This document shows, in pieces, positions 1,674 through 43,748 of a DNA stretch of 64,000 nt. Below the pieces are notes generated by a model. That model was not told where the DNA came from. It saw nothing but the letters and a program-made list of their open reading frames with translations, and did no database searches. This DNA is from an uncultured Candidatus Peribacteria bacterium (GTDB lineage Bacteria; Patescibacteriota; Gracilibacteria; BD1-5; UBA6164). The position numbers and the translations under genes are program-made. The stretch covers positions 291-64,290 of the forward strand of contig CAYQAV010000131.1 in the NCBI GenBank assembly GCA_964415565.1, in the 5' to 3' direction. The stretch's first letter is position 1; the number at the start of each line of letters is the position of its first letter.

Positions 1674-1823
1674 TTATAATCCAGCAGCGGCTTGGTTTAA
1701 ATTACTTGCAACAACAGCAGCAGCAGTTAAGAAAATTAACATATATGTACCTGAGTGAAAACTTGTATTTTTTTCATCCCATGCTTTAATTGCTGCAAAA
1801 ATATTTTTTATTTTTGTTTTCAT
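1674..1823 (-). CDS. small (49 aa) single-helix membrane protein, hypothetical
   Basis: ATG 1823 to TAA 1674: MKTKIKNIFAAIKAWDEKNTSFHSGTYMLIFLTAAAVVASNLNQAAAGL. Followed by hairpin aagtcatt/aatgactt. No family recognised. Confidence 0.4.
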   Translation of the reverse strand: MKTKIKNIFAAIKAWDEKNTSFHSGTYMLIFLTAAAVVASNLNQAAAGL

Positions 1824-22895: not shown

Positions 22896-23960
22896 TTAAG
22901 CTCTTTTTCAAGAAGCAGAACTTAATCTATCAATCATTTCATCATTTGTTTGCCAATTAACACAAGCATCAGTTATACTAACTCAATGTTTCAAAGAATC
23001 ACTTAAAGGTTGATTTCATTCATTTATATTTGATTCAATCATAACTCAAATAATTCTTTTATTTCAAGCTTCTATTTGTCTTGCTATATCTTCACATACA
23101 ATTGGTTGATTATTGTGATTTTTACTACTATTTGCATGAGAAAAATCTACAACTATACCAGTTTTTATTCATGCTTTATCTAATTTTTCAGTAGTTGCTT
23201 TTATATTTTCAGAATCATAATTTGTTCAATTTGCACCACCTCTAAGAATTATATGTCAGTCAGGATTTCATGATGTTTTTACTTTTGCAACTCTTCATTC
23301 TTTTGTTACTGATAAAAAACTATGCTTTCATCTAGCTGATTTTATAGCATCAACAGCAATTTGTAAATCTCATGTTGTACCATTTTTAAATCAAACTGGC
23401 ATAGATAATCCTGAAACTAGTTTTCTATGTTCTTGACTTTCAGTTGTTCTAGCTCAAATTGCTCACCAAGTTACTAAATCTCAAATATATTGTGGAGTTA
23501 TAGTATCAAGAAATTCAACAGCAGTTGGAATTCACATCTTATTTATTTTTAGAAGCAAATCTCTAGCTATTTCCAAGCCAGAGTTTATATCACAACTATC
23601 ATCTAAATATGGGTCATTTAATAATCATTTCCACCCAACTGTTGTTCTTGGTTTTTCAAAATATGTTCTCATAACAAGAAATAAATGAGGATTTTTTTCT
23701 TGTATTGATTTTAAAAGTTCAGCATATTCTAGAGCTTCATCTGGATTGTGAATAGAACAAGGTCAAGTTATAACAAGTAATCTTGGATCATTTAATTGAA
23801 TAATATTACTAGTTGCTATTCTACTTAATTCTATAAATTCTGCAGTTTTTTCATCAAGAGGAAATTTTTCAACTAATTCTTTTGGAGTTATAATTTCTTC
23901 AATTTCTTCAATCCTCTTATCATCAACAACTGATAGGGTATCTTTTCTAGGTTGGTTCAT
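22896..23960 (-). CDS. aroG: 3-deoxy-7-phosphoheptulonate (DAHP) synthase, class I AroF/G/H type (354 aa)
   Basis: [72 protein letters not shown]. The isozyme (feedback specificity) cannot be told from sequence alone. Confidence 0.9.
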
Positions 23961-23990
23961 AAAAATATTTTTAAAAAATAAATAAGTTAT

Positions 23991-24018
23991 AAAAAAAGAC
24001 CTTTTTTCAAAGGTCTTT
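23991..24018 (-). terminator. intrinsic terminator inside the DAHP synthase leader (candidate attenuator)
   Basis: Minus strand AAAGACCTTT-GAAA-AAAGGTCTTT followed by TTTTTAT, ending about 30 nt upstream of the ATG at 23960. Confidence 0.65.
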
Positions 24019-24044
24019 AGTTTTTATAAAAAGTTGTTTAAATT

Positions 24045-24122
24045 TTATATACTAAAAAATCATCCTTTGAAGAAGAATTTGTTTCAAAAGAAGAAAAAAT
24101 AATTTTGTTTTAAATTTCTCAT
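24045..24122 (-). CDS. Phe-rich leader peptide (25 aa with TGA=Gly; 12 aa if TGA stops)
   Basis: ATG AGA AAT TTA AAA CAA AAT TAT TTT TTC TTC TTT TGA AAC AAA TTC TTC TTC AAA GGA TGA TTT TTT AGT ATA TAA = MRNLKQNYFFFFGNKFFFKGGFFSI. Nine Phe codons. Confidence 0.55.
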
Positions 24123-24261
24123 TTTTTTTAGTTAAAATTTACATATATATTTTTATGTATTTTTTGTGTTATGTCAAATGTTTTTTTTAAAAATATAATT
24201 TTTTTGTTTTTTATTTTAAAATTATATAATAATAATAGATTACTTATTAAACTAATTTTTA

Positions 24262-24924
24262 ATGTCAAAAATAGCAATTGTAACAGCGATGAAAGAGGAA
24301 TCAGAACATATTATTTCTCTTTATGATTTACATAAAACAAAAAAACTAAAAAATATAACTATATTTGAAAATGAAAAAATGGTTTTAGCTTTAGCTTGAA
24401 TTTGAAAAGTACAAGCAAGTATAGCTACAACTTATCTTTTTTTAAATTATGAAATATCAAAATTAATAAATATTTGAATTGCATGAAGTTTACTATGAGA
24501 TAAAGCTTCAATAGGAGATGTTTTTCTACTAAATAAAATTTCTCAACATGATATGTATTTGCCATTTGATGGCGAACATTTGTATTATGCAAAAAAAGAA
24601 ATAATTATAGAAAATACTATTAATTTAGATTTTTCAGACTTACCATTTAGTGTTACAAAAAATGCATATTGTCTTACTTGAGACCAGTTTATTGATGATG
24701 CAGAAAAGGTTTTAGAAATTAAAAAAATTTATAATGCAGATGTTATAGAAATGGAAGCATTTGCCATAGCTTCAGTTGCTCGTGAATTTGATAGTTTAGA
24801 AAAATGTATATTTATAAAAGCTATTTCAGATTGAGCTGACAATGATGCAAAAGATGCTCATATGTGAAATCTAGATTTTGCAATGAATAATAGTATAAAA
24901 GTTTTAGAAAAAATAATATCTTAA
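24262..24924 (+). CDS. mtnN: 5'-methylthioadenosine/S-adenosylhomocysteine nucleosidase (220 aa)
   Basis: IAIVTAMKEE..LAGIGKVQAS..NIGIAGSL..VIEMEAFAIA..ISDGAD. Confidence 0.85.
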
Positions 24925-24941
24925 TTTATAAATAAAAAAAA

Positions 24942-25421
24942 ATGGAAAAAATAGCAAGTTTTATGATAGATCATACAAGAATGTTTCCTTGAGTTTATGT
25001 TTCAAGAAAAGATGAAGTTGGAAATAGTACAATAACTACTTTTGACTTAAGGATGACAAAACCAAATTGTGAACCAGTTATGAATACTGCAGAAATGCAT
25101 GCAATCGAACATTTAGCAGCAACTTTTTTGAGAAATCATAGTGAATATGGTTCAAAAACTATTTATTTTTGACCAATGTGATGTAGAACTGGGTTTTATC
25201 TTTTATTAAGTTGAGAATATGAATCTAAAGATATAGTTCCATTACTTATAGAATTATATACTTTTATGTCAGAGTTTGAATGACATATTCCTGGACAAAG
25301 TGCTATGGATTGTGGAAATTATTTAGATATGAATTTACCAATGGCTAGATATATATCTAAAAAATATTTAAATGAAGTTTTGCTTAATTTAAAAGATTAT
25401 AATTTAGTTTATCCTCAATAA
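24942..25421 (+). CDS. luxS: S-ribosylhomocysteine lyase LuxS (159 aa)
   Basis: FMIDHTRM..TFDLRMTKPN..MHAIEHLAATFLRN..GPMGCRTGFYL; HxxEH and Cys metal ligands. Confidence 0.9.
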
Positions 25422-25431
25422 TTTTTAAACC

Positions 25432-25938
25432 ATGGATTTTAAAAAATATATTAGAGAAGTTAAAGATTTTCCAAAAGAGTGAATTGATTTCAAAGATATA
25501 ACAACTCTTTTACAAGAACCAAAAGTTTTTAGTGAAGTAATAGATCAAATATCTAAAAATATAAGTGATGCAGATTTGATTATATGACTTGATGCAAGAT
25601 GATTTTTGTTTGCAGGAGCATTGGCATACAAATTGTGAATACCACTTGTAATAGTTAGAAAAAAAGGGAAATTACCATATGAAACAATTTCTGTTGATTA
25701 TGAATTAGAGTATTGAAAAAATACTTTTGATTTAAATATAGATGCAGTTGAAAAATGACAAAAAGTTGCAATAATTGATGATTTATTGGCTACTTGATGA
25801 ACAGCTCTTGCTGCTTGTCAATTGGTTGAAAAATTGTGATGAAAAATTCATTCACTAAATTTTTTAATAGATTTAACTTTTATAGATAGAAAAGATATTT
25901 TAAAGTGATATAAAATTAATTCACTTTGTGAATATTAA
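25432..25938 (+). CDS. apt: adenine phosphoribosyltransferase (168 aa)
   Basis: [66 protein letters not shown]. Confidence 0.9.
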
Positions 25939-25966
25939 AAAAAGCTAGAAAACTCTAGCTTTTTTT
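25937..25966. terminator. bidirectional terminator shared by apt and the TagA-like gene
   Basis: A-run, stem agctaga/tctagct, T-run. The minus-strand gene's TAG stop (25955-25957) lies in the stem. Confidence 0.7.
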
Positions 25967-26770
25967 GTTTCTGATAACTTCAAAAATAAATACAAATATA
26001 GCATTGTATAGTCTTTTTAATCTATCTATTTTTCTAGGTCAAGTAATTAGTCTATAAAGCCATTCTATTCATAATTTTCTCCATAGTTTAGGTGCTCTTT
26101 TTTGAAATCCTATAAAGTAATCAAAACTTGATCATATAGCTAGTCATATCTTTATATTTTCACATTCTTTCATTATTTCAACAACTGATTTTTCTTGGCA
26201 TTTCATTCAAAGAGTTGAAAAAATTATCTTGCTCTTACTATTTTTAACCTTGTCTATAATTTCTTCTTTTTTACTTGGTTCATAAATAAAATAATCAAAA
26301 TCTAGTTTTTTAAACTTTTCTTTTAAAAGTTTAAAAAACACTTTTTGAGACTCTACTTTTTTTGTATCAGATGGATTGTATAAATCAATAATTGTAACTT
26401 TTATCTTGTTCTTTTCACTGTATTTTATTAAATCTTTTGTTAAATCACTTCAACAAATTCTTTCACCATATTTTTTGTAAAGATATTTTCTTTTGAAAAA
26501 TAAATTGAAAAAAAAGTAGGGAAGAAATAGTGTATTTATTATTTTTCCGTAATTATTATCTATTATTTGATATGCAATATAAAGTCATATTCAGTCAGAA
26601 GTCTTGTAAGTTGCTTTATTTATCAAGTTTTTAAATTCGCTATCTTTCTTTGTTTTTAAAAGTATTTCAGGATTTGGTGTGAAAACTATATTTTGTATTT
26701 CAAACTTAGTTATTTTTTCAAATAATTCTTTGGAAGAGATATTATCTATTTTTATTCAAAATATTTGCAT
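25955..26770 (-). CDS. WecG/TagA/CpsF-family glycosyltransferase (271 aa)
   Basis: MQIFGIKIDNIS..IVFTPNPEILL..DGIGLY..FSTLGMKCQEKS..AIGSSFDYFIGFQKRAPKLWRKLGIEWLYRLITGPRK. Confidence 0.8.
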
Positions 26771-41716: not shown

Positions 41717-43711
41717 ATGGAATTAAAAACAAAGATTATAAACGAGTTAAAAAATAAAAATTTTCCAGACTTAAAATTTCTTATGAGTGTTGAAGTTTTA
41801 GAATTGGCAACTGAGATATTAAATGAAGAATTAGAAAATGAAAAAACAAAATTTGAAGATATTTTAAAAAAAGAAAATTCATCCCTAACTTTTGATAGTT
41901 TTGAAGATGATTCTATTCTTGATTATTTTTGGAGTTTATTAAATCATTTTGAAAATGTAGAATCAAGTGAAAAACTTAGAAATATAATAGAAGATTTTAG
42001 ACCAAAATTACAAGATTTTTGAAATGAAGTTGCTTATAATAAGCCTTATTTTGAAAAAGTTAAATATGTAAATGAAAATTTAAAACTTGATACAGAGCAA
42101 AAGAGAATAATGGATTTGAGAATAAAATCATATATAGATAGATGAATTGATTTAGCAGTTGAACAACAAGAAGAAATCAAAAAAATAAACAAAAAACTAG
42201 GAGAATTAAGTGATAAATTCACAAATAATATAGTAGATGACCAAAAAACTTTTGAGTATTTAATTATTGATTTTGAGCTTATAAAAGATTTGCCAAATGA
42301 AGTTTTGGAAATTGCAAAAGAAGCTTGAAGTGAAAAGTGATGATATCTTTTTGATAGTGATCCAACAAGTTATTCTGCTATTATGAAATATTGTTCTAGT
42401 CAGGAAATAAGACAAGATTTTGAAAAAGCTTCTTATACAACTGCATCAAATTGAAAATTTGATAATAGAAAAATAGTTTTAGAATTATTAAAACTAAAAG
42501 ATACAAAATCAAAATTGCTTTGATATAAAAATTATGCAGAACTTAGTTTAAATGATAAGATGGCAGATTCTCCAGAACAAGTTTTTGAATTATTAAATTC
42601 TATAAGTGAAAAAGCTATAAAAAAAGCAGATTTAGATATACAAGAATTGAAAGATTATTTTTCACTAGATAATATAGAAACTTATGATTTAGGTTATTAC
42701 ACAAGGATATTAAAAGAAAAAAAATATGATTTAGACGAAAAAGAGATAAAAAAATATTTTGAATTTGAAGATGTTTTAAATTATCTACATAGATTTGTAG
42801 AAAATTTTTACTCTATAGAAATAAAAGAAACAAAGATTGAATCATACAATAGTGAAGTAAGAGTTTACGAAATATATAAAGATAATAAATTAATTTCTTA
42901 TTATTTTTTAGATGCATTTTATAGAAAAGGGAAAAGACCAGGTGCTTGGGCTGATAACTTGAGAGAAAAAATGTATTTTCCAGAATCAAGTGTTCCAGTT
43001 ATCTTAAATGTTTGTAATTTTCAAAAGGCAAATAATTGAAAAACAACTCTTTATTTAAGAGATGTTGAAACAATCTTTCATGAATTTGGACATGCACTTC
43101 ACGAAATGCTTTCTGAAAGTAAATATAGTGAATTATCAGGTTTTTGAGTTGAGTGGGATTTTGTAGAACTTCCAAGTCAATTGCTTGAAAATTGGGTAAG
43201 TGATAAAGATAGTTTAAAAAAATTATCAAAACATATTGAAACTTGAGAAAATTTTAGTGAAGAAATTATGTCAAAATTGGAAAAATTGAAGACTTTTATG
43301 ACTTGAGTTTTTGTTGCTAGACAAAATGAATTTGCACTTTTAGATATGAATTTATACAGTTCTGAAATTCCTGACAATATAGAACAACTAGATAAAAAAA
43401 TACTTGAAATAGTAAACAAATATAGCATCTTTAAAAGATTAGATGATTACAAGATGTATTGTTCTTTTAATCATATATTTGGTTGATGATATGCAGCAGG
43501 TTATTATTCATACACTTGGGCAGAAATAATTGAAGCAGATATTTTTTCAAGAATCAAAGAAATGTGAATGTTTGAAAAATCAACATGAGAAAAATTTCTA
43601 AAAACTATTTTATGACAATGAACTAGAAAAAAAGCGACAGAGTTATTTTTTGATTTTATGTGAAGAGAAGTTGAAAATGAAGCATATATGAAAAGATATT
43701 GATTAATATAA
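41717..43711 (+). CDS. M3-family zinc metallopeptidase (oligopeptidase A / dipeptidyl carboxypeptidase type, 664 aa)
   Basis: [11 protein letters not shown] zinc motif, [32 protein letters not shown]. Track ORFs 41717..42022 and 42560..43039 are in the same frame. Confidence 0.85.
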
Positions 43712-43713
43712 TC

Positions 43714-43748
43714 AAAAACCCCACGCATGCGTGGGGTTTTTCTTTTTT
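43714..43748. terminator. GC-rich bidirectional terminator
   Basis: aaaaaCCCCACGCatGCGTGGGGttttt. This is the only G+C-rich terminator stem I saw in the window. Confidence 0.75.

Follow-up and report, generated by a model that had tools for sequence, protein, structure and literature searches.

The window, which is the whole 64,000-nt stretch of an uncultured Candidatus Peribacteria bacterium (Gracilibacteria) analyzed here, carries on its minus strand a gene for 3-deoxy-D-arabino-heptulosonate-7-phosphate synthase (DAHPS), preceded by a leader that harbors a phenylalanine-rich upstream open reading frame (uORF) and an intrinsic terminator. We conclude that this leader is, with a probability of roughly 85%, a ribosome-mediated transcription attenuator, which would sense the charging of Phe and Tyr tRNAs, together with that of Trp tRNA in seven of 13 distinct leaders, and would control the DAHPS gene. 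An attenuator of this kind had been put forward in the original prediction on this stretch, and conservation, covariation, and constrained folds support it; the signal is not Phe only, as had then been proposed, since the Phe run is real but also includes Tyr and, in some relatives, Trp. Observed here are the sequence elements, their conservation, the covariation of both alternative helices, and a switch in predicted folding, from which translation of the uORF, ribosome stalling, and termination in vivo are inferred.

In the proposed mechanism, transcription would start approximately 20–25 nt upstream of the 25-codon uORF. When Phe- or Tyr-tRNA is scarce, the first ribosome would stall on the Y-F-F-F-F run (24101-24087), covering segment 1 and freeing segment 2 (24071-24063), and, before the 3′ arm is made, segment 2 and the sequence that follows it would pair up with the terminator's 5′ arm and loop to give an antiterminator (24071-24006), so that RNA polymerase would read through into DAHPS. 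When aromatic tRNAs are plentiful, the ribosome would proceed through segment 2 into the inner stems of the antiterminator, which hold the stop codon (24047-24045), a branch that would need both UGA codons of the uORF to be decoded as Gly; with the antiterminator disrupted, the terminator (24018-23991) would form and transcription would end 30 nt ahead of DAHPS. In untranslated RNA, the run of Phe codons could itself pair with segment 2. The features involved are collected in table 1.

Table 1. Leader elements of the proposed attenuator, the gene it would regulate, and adjacent genes, in positions of the window
Feature	Position	Strand	Description	Basis
DAHPS gene (regulated gene)	22896..23960	-	class I (AroF/G/H-type) DAHPS, 354 amino acids	Pfam, TIGR00034, map of open reading frames
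Intrinsic terminator	23991..24018	-	10-bp stem AAAGACCUUU/AAAGGUCUUU, GAAA loop, U7	sequence, scan, covariation
Antiterminator	24006..24071	-	extended hairpin that takes up the whole terminator 5′ arm	constrained fold
Leader peptide uORF	24045..24122	-	25 codons and TAA, MRNLKQNYFFFFGNKFFFKGGFFSI under code 25	sequence
Segment 2	24063..24071	-	UUCAAAGGA, codons F18-K19-G20; partner of segment 1 or of the terminator 5′ arm and loop	duplex energy, covariation
Segment 1	24083..24091	-	UCUUUUGAA, end of the Phe run and first UGA codon; predicted to pair with segment 2 in ribosome-free RNA	minimum free energy folds
Regulatory codon run	24087..24101	-	TAT TTT TTC TTC TTT (Y8-F12), proposed ribosome stall site	run kept in relatives; stall role inferred
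Putative sigma-70-type promoter	24149..24177	-	-35 TTGACA 24177-24172, 17-nt spacer, A/T-rich -10 24154-24149	consensus scan
Divergent upstream block	24262-25938	+	PNP_UDP_1 (phosphorylase superfamily; Pfs/MTA-nucleosidase-like), luxS, phosphoribosyltransferase gene	

The uORF opens with an ATG at 24122 and closes with a TAA at 24047-24045 on the minus strand, and its codons (ATG AGA AAT TTA AAA CAA AAT TAT TTT TTC TTC TTT TGA AAC AAA TTC TTC TTC AAA GGA TGA TTT TTT AGT ATA TAA) comprise 25 sense codons with nine Phe and one Tyr, the in-frame TGA at codons 13 and 21 being read as Gly. It is the sole ATG-initiated open reading frame (ORF) of at least eight codons in the window leader, and its stop is located 84 nt upstream of the DAHPS ATG. 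By itself, the Phe-richness of this uORF is weak evidence and is expected by chance in a window of approximately 23% guanine–cytosine (GC) content, where five of 477 ATG-initiated ORFs of 15–40 codons have an aromatic run of at least five codons and 18 have at least ten aromatic residues. Of the other ORFs with such runs, those not contained in genes map to a T-rich spacer at 1942 (minus strand), where the aromatic-rich ORF looks like a chance product of the spacer and lacks a matching terminator logic. Within the 137-nt leader, an equally long aromatic run in an ORF was obtained in 2 of 2000 dinucleotide-preserving shuffles, and the leader RNA folds better than its shuffles (z = −3.4). Additionally, five of the nine Phe codons in the uORF are TTC, compared with 7.8% (76/978) in the window genes (binomial P = 2.7e-4).

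The terminator consists of the hairpin AAAGACCTTT-GAAA-AAAGGTCTTT at 24018-23995 (minus strand) and a T7 tract that ends at 23991, placed 26 nt past the uORF stop and 30 nt ahead of the DAHPS ATG; a consensus scan also recovered it, with 10 pairs, among four terminator-like sites in 2.5 kb against 0.4 expected. The promoter scan predicts a transcript start approximately 20–25 nt before the uORF ATG. Eight nucleotides of the uORF, TTCAAAGG (24071-24064), are complementary to CCTTTGAA (24013-24006), and the duplex of segment 2 with the terminator 5′ arm amounts to −10.1 kcal/mol (z = −3.2 vs. shuffles). The stems of the predicted antiterminator are UUCAAAGG:CCUUUGAA, UUUUUAGU:ACUAAAGA, and UAUAAAA:UUUUAUA, the stop codon of the uORF falling within an inner stem; once a ribosome is set on Y8-F12 and the 3′ arm left untranscribed, this hairpin comes to −15.2 to −16.4 kcal/mol and pairs 7/7 positions of the terminator 5′ arm. 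Most of this anatomy had been described in the original prediction: its coordinates and codons for the uORF, with nine Phe and one Tyr in 25 residues, are correct to the base, the terminator 26 nt past the uORF and some 30 nt before the ATG is borne out by both sequence and scan, and the 8-nt complementarity is present. The folding check that it had proposed found the antiterminator competitive, yet larger than had been envisaged, namely the extended hairpin 24071-24006 at −15.2 kcal/mol in place of 8 bp alone.

Strong support came from relatives. A protein search yielded a graded series of Gracilibacteria-type DAHPS homologs, from 96% down to 57% identity, and the homologous DNA was examined at 13 loci (numbered with an L below), to which a metagenome DNA-pattern scan added three leaders; the comparative set comprises 13 distinct leaders at 16 loci, 14 of them reached through DAHPS homologs of 57–89% identity, and 11 leaders were folded and shuffle-tested. 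At every DAHPS locus of the clade examined we found the uORF with an aromatic run, the terminator, and the matching antiterminator segment, a shared plan that is kept even where the leader sequence is unalignable to that of the window. Conservation of the Phe-rich uORF in relatives, which the original prediction had named as the point on which it could fail, therefore came out clearly in its favor. All 13 distinct leaders combine a putative promoter, approximately 55 nt ahead of an ATG, with a uORF of 19–29 codons that has a run of five to eight F/Y/W codons. A hairpin with T6-8 starts 19–38 nt after each uORF, the next start codon follows the T-run by 13–30 nt, and 13 of 14 loci have TTGACA at a distance of 49–59 nt ahead of the uORF ATG. 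Most leaders have no ATG-initiated ORF of at least eight codons besides the aromatic uORF, dinucleotide shuffling of each of the 11 leaders produced an equal aromatic run at most twice in 2000 trials, and 12 of the 13 distinct leaders precede either DAHPS itself or a short operon with DAHPS as its last gene.

In the close relatives L001, L081, and L082/L083, whose DAHPS are 77–89% identical to that of the window, the leader is the same (MRNLRQNYFFFFFGNIFFFKGCFFSI) apart from one extra in-frame TTC codon, a 3-nt insertion that keeps the frame, and the change of its second TGA to TGT. These relatives share 90–92% identity with the window from the −35 box to the DAHPS ATG and approximately 59% upstream of the −35 box, and 84–86% in the DAHPS coding sequence (74–75% at third positions), so that leader identity exceeds coding-sequence identity. 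The few leader differences among the four close relatives fall in codons outside the run and in the apical loop of the antiterminator, not in its stems. Between lineages, the N-terminal sequences and the lengths of the uORFs differ completely, as seen in the distant peptides MNKLITTTSYFFFYFFSKAEGYFWCM (L084), MSVLSSINFFYFYFWISARRMSFLSV (L085), MLSLKKSYFFFFFFNTSLLKD (L086), MNASKYISFGFYFFFFREMLKD (L090), MGAAKKYTYFFFFFSKFLLKD (L091), and MKNYQTSYFFFYFKFSNEE (L092), and in the form ...SW.FF.YFF..KNGR(V/I)S(L/F)C(V/I) of a subclade comprising L088, L089, L093, L094, L096, and L106. The uORF of L091 exists only under code 25, because its codon 2 is UGA. Apart from the aromatic run, conservation of the peptide is confined to its C-terminal stretch, the one overlapping segment 2. 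The preference for TTC recurs across the leaders, in whose uORFs it accounts for 34 of 65 Phe codons (52%) versus 18 of 76 (24%) in the DAHPS genes next to them (Fisher P = 8e-4), and TAC versus TAT exhibits no comparable bias; this suggests that the Phe codons (UUCUUC) are selected to base-pair with the GAAGGA-type segment 2. In most leaders the terminator has GUUCUUC as its 5′ arm, a sequence that resembles the codon run.

Both helices of the proposed switch covary. In an unsupervised MAFFT alignment of the 13 leaders, 96% of the terminator cells are paired and five of the 10 pairs carry compensatory changes on both sides; none of 500 shuffles reached the observed pairing or covariation, and slid controls gave 42–67%. 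In every leader, a 3′ segment of the uORF can base-pair with its own terminator, at the 5′ arm and loop, with the pairing realized by different sequences (UUCAAAGG:CCUUUGAA in the window, GCUGAAGGAU:AUCCUUCGGC in L084, ACGAAGAA:UUCUUCGU in L085, UUGUUAAAGGA:UUCUUUAACAA in L086, AUGGAAGGG:UUCUUCCAU in L088, and UGCUGAAGGA:UUCUUCAGCA in L090). Over 11 leaders, the mean duplex energy of segment 2 with the terminator was −12.2 kcal/mol within the same lineage versus −7.7 kcal/mol across lineages, six of 11 segment-2 regions scored best with their own terminator and seven of 11 terminators with their own segment 2, and the z-scores against shuffles ranged from −1.5 to −5.1. In a register-anchored alignment of the antiterminator, 97% of the cells are paired and three of nine pairs (11 cells) are compensatory, a level equaled by none of 500 shuffles and compared with 39–63% in slid controls. 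The register of this second alignment was set by hand, as plain MAFFT put the segment one column off in half of the sequences.

Constrained folds of the 11 leaders, in which a ribosome footprint of 30 nt was set on various codons, exhibited the corresponding change of structure. Without a ribosome, 10 of 11 leaders adopt the terminator at full length, and in nine the aromatic run is predicted to form a hairpin with segment 2 (24091-24083 with 24071-24063 in the window); of the other two, L085 uses another upstream partner and L090 has none. When the ribosome occupies early or middle run codons and the 3′ arm is still to be transcribed, all 11 leaders fold so that the antiterminator takes up the terminator 5′ arm completely or nearly so (7/8, 10/11). 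In five leaders (L084, L086, L090, L091, and L092), a stalled ribosome turns even the minimum free energy (MFE) structure of the full-length RNA from the terminator into the antiterminator; once the ribosome is moved to the stop codon, 10 of the 11 full-length RNAs fold into the terminator again.

Several observations weigh against this interpretation. In the window itself the full-length MFE structure keeps the terminator even with a stalled ribosome; as this equilibrium favors the terminator in all states, the switch would have to be kinetic. The truncated ribosome-free RNA of the window favors the antiterminator over the hairpin between segments 1 and 2. Under the 30-nt footprint, a ribosome at the stop codon leaves segment 2 unmasked (in the window, L084, L085, and L089) and masks only the inner stems, and the later Phe codons, F16-18 and F22-23, overlap segment 2 and the inner stem, where a stall would favor termination. 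The count of covarying antiterminator pairs depends on the hand-anchored register; the cross-lineage and shuffle tests of duplex energy are independent of it. One leader, in L106, has no DAHPS behind it, as described below. Finally, the case is built on sequence: that the uORF is translated, where transcription starts, and that it terminates are predictions.

Among other explanations for the same elements, each of which is poorly supported, the one that survives best is that the switch is real but set by a trans-acting RNA-binding protein or small RNA acting on the U/C-rich tract, the uORF being incidental; we consider it unlikely. The tract is predicted to pair with segment 2 without a ribosome, the enrichment of TTC indicates a constraint at the RNA level, and translation of the uORF is a prediction. 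However, all 13 distinct leaders retain the run within an ATG-to-stop frame despite wholly different N-termini and lengths, the 3-nt indel keeps the frame, and shuffles seldom yield such ORFs; the tract is always in the F/Y/W codon frame and never in the Ser or Leu frames, and the interspersed Trp (TGG) and Tyr codons would be needless in a plain pyrimidine tract.

Lower still we rate an action of the uORF mainly on translation or mRNA stability, through re-initiation, coupling, or Rho-dependent polarity, and not on the intrinsic terminator. Leader ORFs have been proposed to boost downstream translation by re-initiation (PMC4833913), and a genome without Shine–Dalgarno (SD) sequences would have unusual initiation signals. 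This proposal is difficult to reconcile with a distance of 84 nt from the uORF stop to the DAHPS ATG and a strong terminator in between, and with a covarying antiterminator, which makes sense only where terminator formation is the regulated step.

It is less probable again that the uORF encodes a functional small hydrophobic peptide with its own terminator, DAHPS being expressed from a separate promoter. The window does include small ORFs with terminators of their own, for instance 1823-1674 (minus strand) followed by a hairpin, but here the conserved C-terminal stretch overlaps segment 2 and tracks the terminator of the same leader while the N-termini are unrelated, the 13–30 nt between the T-run and the next start codon leave no room for a promoter, and the association of the leader with DAHPS is nearly exclusive. 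The least probable account, a chance Phe-rich ORF in an AT-rich spacer beside an ordinary or bidirectional terminator with no regulatory role, can appeal to the frequency of short aromatic-rich ORFs in this genome (the 5/477 with runs of at least five) and to the hairpin also scoring as a terminator on the plus strand, but it is effectively refuted by the comparative data, in that conservation and covariation of the composite extend across lineages, the leader has changed less than the coding sequence, no window gene ends beside the hairpin on either strand, and 21 unrelated metagenome matches to the pattern of segment 2 and terminator lack an aromatic uORF.

The attenuator interpretation also fits the genomic context. 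The DAHPS ORF, with its start codon ATG at 23960 (minus strand), matched Pfam PF00793 with 281 bits and TIGR00034 (aroFGH) with 483 bits. According to the ORF map of the window, its downstream neighbor is convergent, so the DAHPS gene is monocistronic, and its upstream neighbor is divergent; the terminator is therefore located in the 5′ leader of a monocistronic gene. Assignment of the terminator to the upstream gene was ruled out by the divergent orientation of that gene, and no gene end adjoins the hairpin 24018-23991 on either strand of the map. In L081 and L082, wecG is located directly upstream of the leader and on the same strand, and in the window a three-gene block is inserted in the opposite orientation between wecG (25955-26770, minus strand) and the DAHPS promoter, the similarity between the window and L081/L082 resuming past the inserted block, at the −35 box.

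As the proposed replete branch passes through two UGA codons, the genetic code of the genome matters for the model. The window genes are fragmented under table 11 and whole under table 25, and UGA makes up 4.4% of the codons in long window ORFs, at conserved Gly positions. The DAHPS gene has 19 in-frame TGA codons, of which 12 align to columns of invariant Gly in four standard-code homologs, a further three to mostly-Gly columns, and none to Trp, and its three TGG codons align to invariant Trp in the same homologs. This alignment supports the reading of TGA as Gly (code 25) in the window genome, and with it the earlier claim that the leader contains recoded TGA codons; TGA as a stop or as Trp was rejected on the same grounds. 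An SD-like 4-mer was found in the 20 nt before the start codon in none of 46 window genes, so the lack of such a motif before the uORF is normal here and is no argument against its translation. No tRNA genes were found in the 64-kb window.

The classical leader-peptide attenuators are trpL, pheL, and those of his, leu, thr, and ilv, in which the position of the ribosome on the uORF selects between antiterminator and terminator. The window leader shares its mechanism class with the trp, his, leu, thr, and ilv attenuators and differs from them in the amino acids sensed and the genes regulated. The likeness extends further for Escherichia coli pheL-pheA (RF01859, Phe_leader), with its run of Phe codons in a short ORF, mutually exclusive 1:2, 2:3, and 3:4 pairings, and intrinsic terminator; pheL differs in the regulated gene (pheA or pheST, vs. 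an aroFGH-type DAHPS in the window), the phylum, and the genetic code. Unlike in the classical attenuators, the replete branch in the window would require UGA to be read as Gly. No Rfam family matched at the gathering threshold over the 64-kb window, and RF01859 reached 24.3 bits versus a threshold of 55 (E = 0.068), over the terminator region 23989-24047 only. At E <= 10, the region 23900-24300 returned only this sub-threshold Phe_leader match and noise, with no T-box or other riboswitch. The T-box leaders that precede aromatic amino-acid genes in Firmicutes likewise form a 5′ terminator/antiterminator switch that reports tRNA charging, but T-box (RF00230) had no match at the gathering threshold in the window nor at E <= 10 in 23900-24300, and the window leader, unlike a T-box, measures approximately 130 nt to the terminator, which is too short, lacks Stem I, the specifier loop, and the T-box sequence, and has a conserved translatable uORF.

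Attenuation ahead of DAHPS has precedents. In Corynebacterium glutamicum, a leader peptide with a Phe-Tyr-Phe motif precedes DAHPS (aroR-aroF) and is experimentally established, ribosomes that stall when Phe is limiting leading to more transcription, as summarized in PMC11802643 (citing Neshat et al. 2014). On that summary, aroR-aroF is the nearest functional analog, since both systems place a Phe/Tyr leader peptide upstream of a DAHPS gene; the aroR case belongs to Actinobacteria, with the standard code and a short Phe-Tyr-Phe motif, whereas the Gracilibacteria leaders have runs of five to eight codons, are AT-rich, and, unlike aroR as portrayed there, would use the Phe codons themselves as pairing segment 1; the likeness is one of mechanism and target gene. 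The uORFC-13-1 motif, predicted computationally in front of aroF in Acholeplasma and in environmental sequences of unassigned origin (Brewer et al. 2021; PMC8632094), is described as comprising promoter boxes and a U-run encoding "at least one" Phe immediately upstream of a terminator, exclusively before DAHPS genes (PMC8632094). The anatomy of the window leader fits this verbal description, a likeness by description only, and the two come from different groups, Acholeplasma (Mollicutes) for uORFC-13-1 and Gracilibacteria for the leader (PMC8632094). For Gracilibacteria, Patescibacteria, or the Candidate Phyla Radiation (CPR) as a whole, we found no report of attenuation or leader peptides in the literature searched, the coverage of which was incomplete. 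Together, these comparisons support the view that the mechanism class is classical and DAHPS attenuation has precedents, the present leader being a new, lineage-specific case.

Beyond the clade, 79 non-Gracilibacteria DAHPS loci (Verrucomicrobia, Gammaproteobacteria, and others) included four with a uORF having an aromatic run of at least four codons, none of them of this design, and inheritance of the leader together with DAHPS from the nearest non-Gracilibacteria relatives was rejected on this basis. In L079, a metagenome-assembled genome of Solirubrobacterales with 71% GC, a uORF (MTHGTHIASATSRFAARTRAYFYFWRFT) with the run YFYFW is located approximately 255 nt upstream of the DAHPS match, ahead of GC-rich hairpins, and may be an aroR-like actinobacterial leader independent of the present ones. 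In none of the 21 metagenome matches to the pattern mentioned above, which are unrelated to the clade, was an aromatic uORF detected.

We lean slightly, on balance, toward regarding these leaders as the first recognized family of ribosome-mediated attenuators in the CPR (Patescibacteria), dependent on the genetic code in the window and behaving as a portable module. The last attribute would follow from an essentially identical leader preceding non-orthologous DAHPS genes in L090 and L112 and from its persistence without DAHPS in L106. The L112 leader has the same uORF and hairpin as that of L090 and precedes a different aroFGH-type DAHPS with 34% amino acid identity. The two contigs (L090:2501-3628 and L112:746-1862) are 98% identical through the DAHPS start codon and again from approximately 25 nt past the stop, a pattern which indicates that the DAHPS ORF was swapped precisely in place behind the attenuator. 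In L106 (L106:2008-2460; JGI Ga0210036_1000003, a contig of 991 kb), an intact leader (MNIRLKNTSWSYFFYFFYQKNGRISFCI) with its terminator is located between hflX and trxB, as in relatives, and the exception lies in what follows, which is only a 68-amino-acid ORF without a family match; a recent loss of DAHPS may have left the leader stranded, or another function may be under its control.

CPR bacteria, Gracilibacteria among them, are generally regarded as reduced symbionts with few biosynthetic and regulatory capacities. A conserved and covarying attenuator is indirect evidence that DAHPS serves aromatic amino-acid synthesis in this lineage, and it suggests that cis-regulatory RNA switches and coupled transcription–translation operate in Gracilibacteria. 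If the interpretation is correct, these small-genome bacteria would make their own aromatic amino acids and tune the committed step to tRNA charging, with transcription and translation coupled closely enough for a leader-peptide switch. The switch in the window would further depend on the reassignment of UGA to Gly, because the ribosome must pass two UGA codons to disrupt the antiterminator; in both the window leader and L091, the in-frame UGA would have to be Gly for the switch to work, which makes them a small natural readout of code 25. The interest of the case is moderate and lies in the CPR lineage, the dependence on a reassigned stop codon, and the implication for aromatic synthesis.

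In some relatives, other genes lie behind the attenuator. The leader of L084 heads an operon of an ORF of unknown function, a type II chorismate mutase (CM_2, 64.5 bits), and DAHPS. Small ORFs without a family match are located between the attenuator and DAHPS at L088:2100-2483, L094:1519-2132, L089:1982-2473, L096 (an ORF of 112 amino acids), and L084:1893-2165, two of them having the motif KSLYGFNLGFA in common, and they are presumably co-regulated. Searches of Pfam and NCBIfam with the small ORFs co-transcribed with DAHPS in relatives identified only the chorismate mutase of L084.

The leader family is without an Rfam model, and the covariance model built here, R1, could serve to annotate these genomes. 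Run against the window with filters off, R1 returned only the element itself (76.6 bits), the next-best match scoring 31.5 bits at a gene end (43646-43744). Elsewhere in the window, a 49-codon ORF with a hydrophobic stretch (MKTKIKNIFAAIKAWDEKNTSFHSGTYMLIFLTAAAVVASNLNQAAAGL; 1674-1823, minus strand) is followed by a clean terminator, AAAAAAGTCATTATAAAAAAATGAC with a T-run, at approximately 1641-1673.

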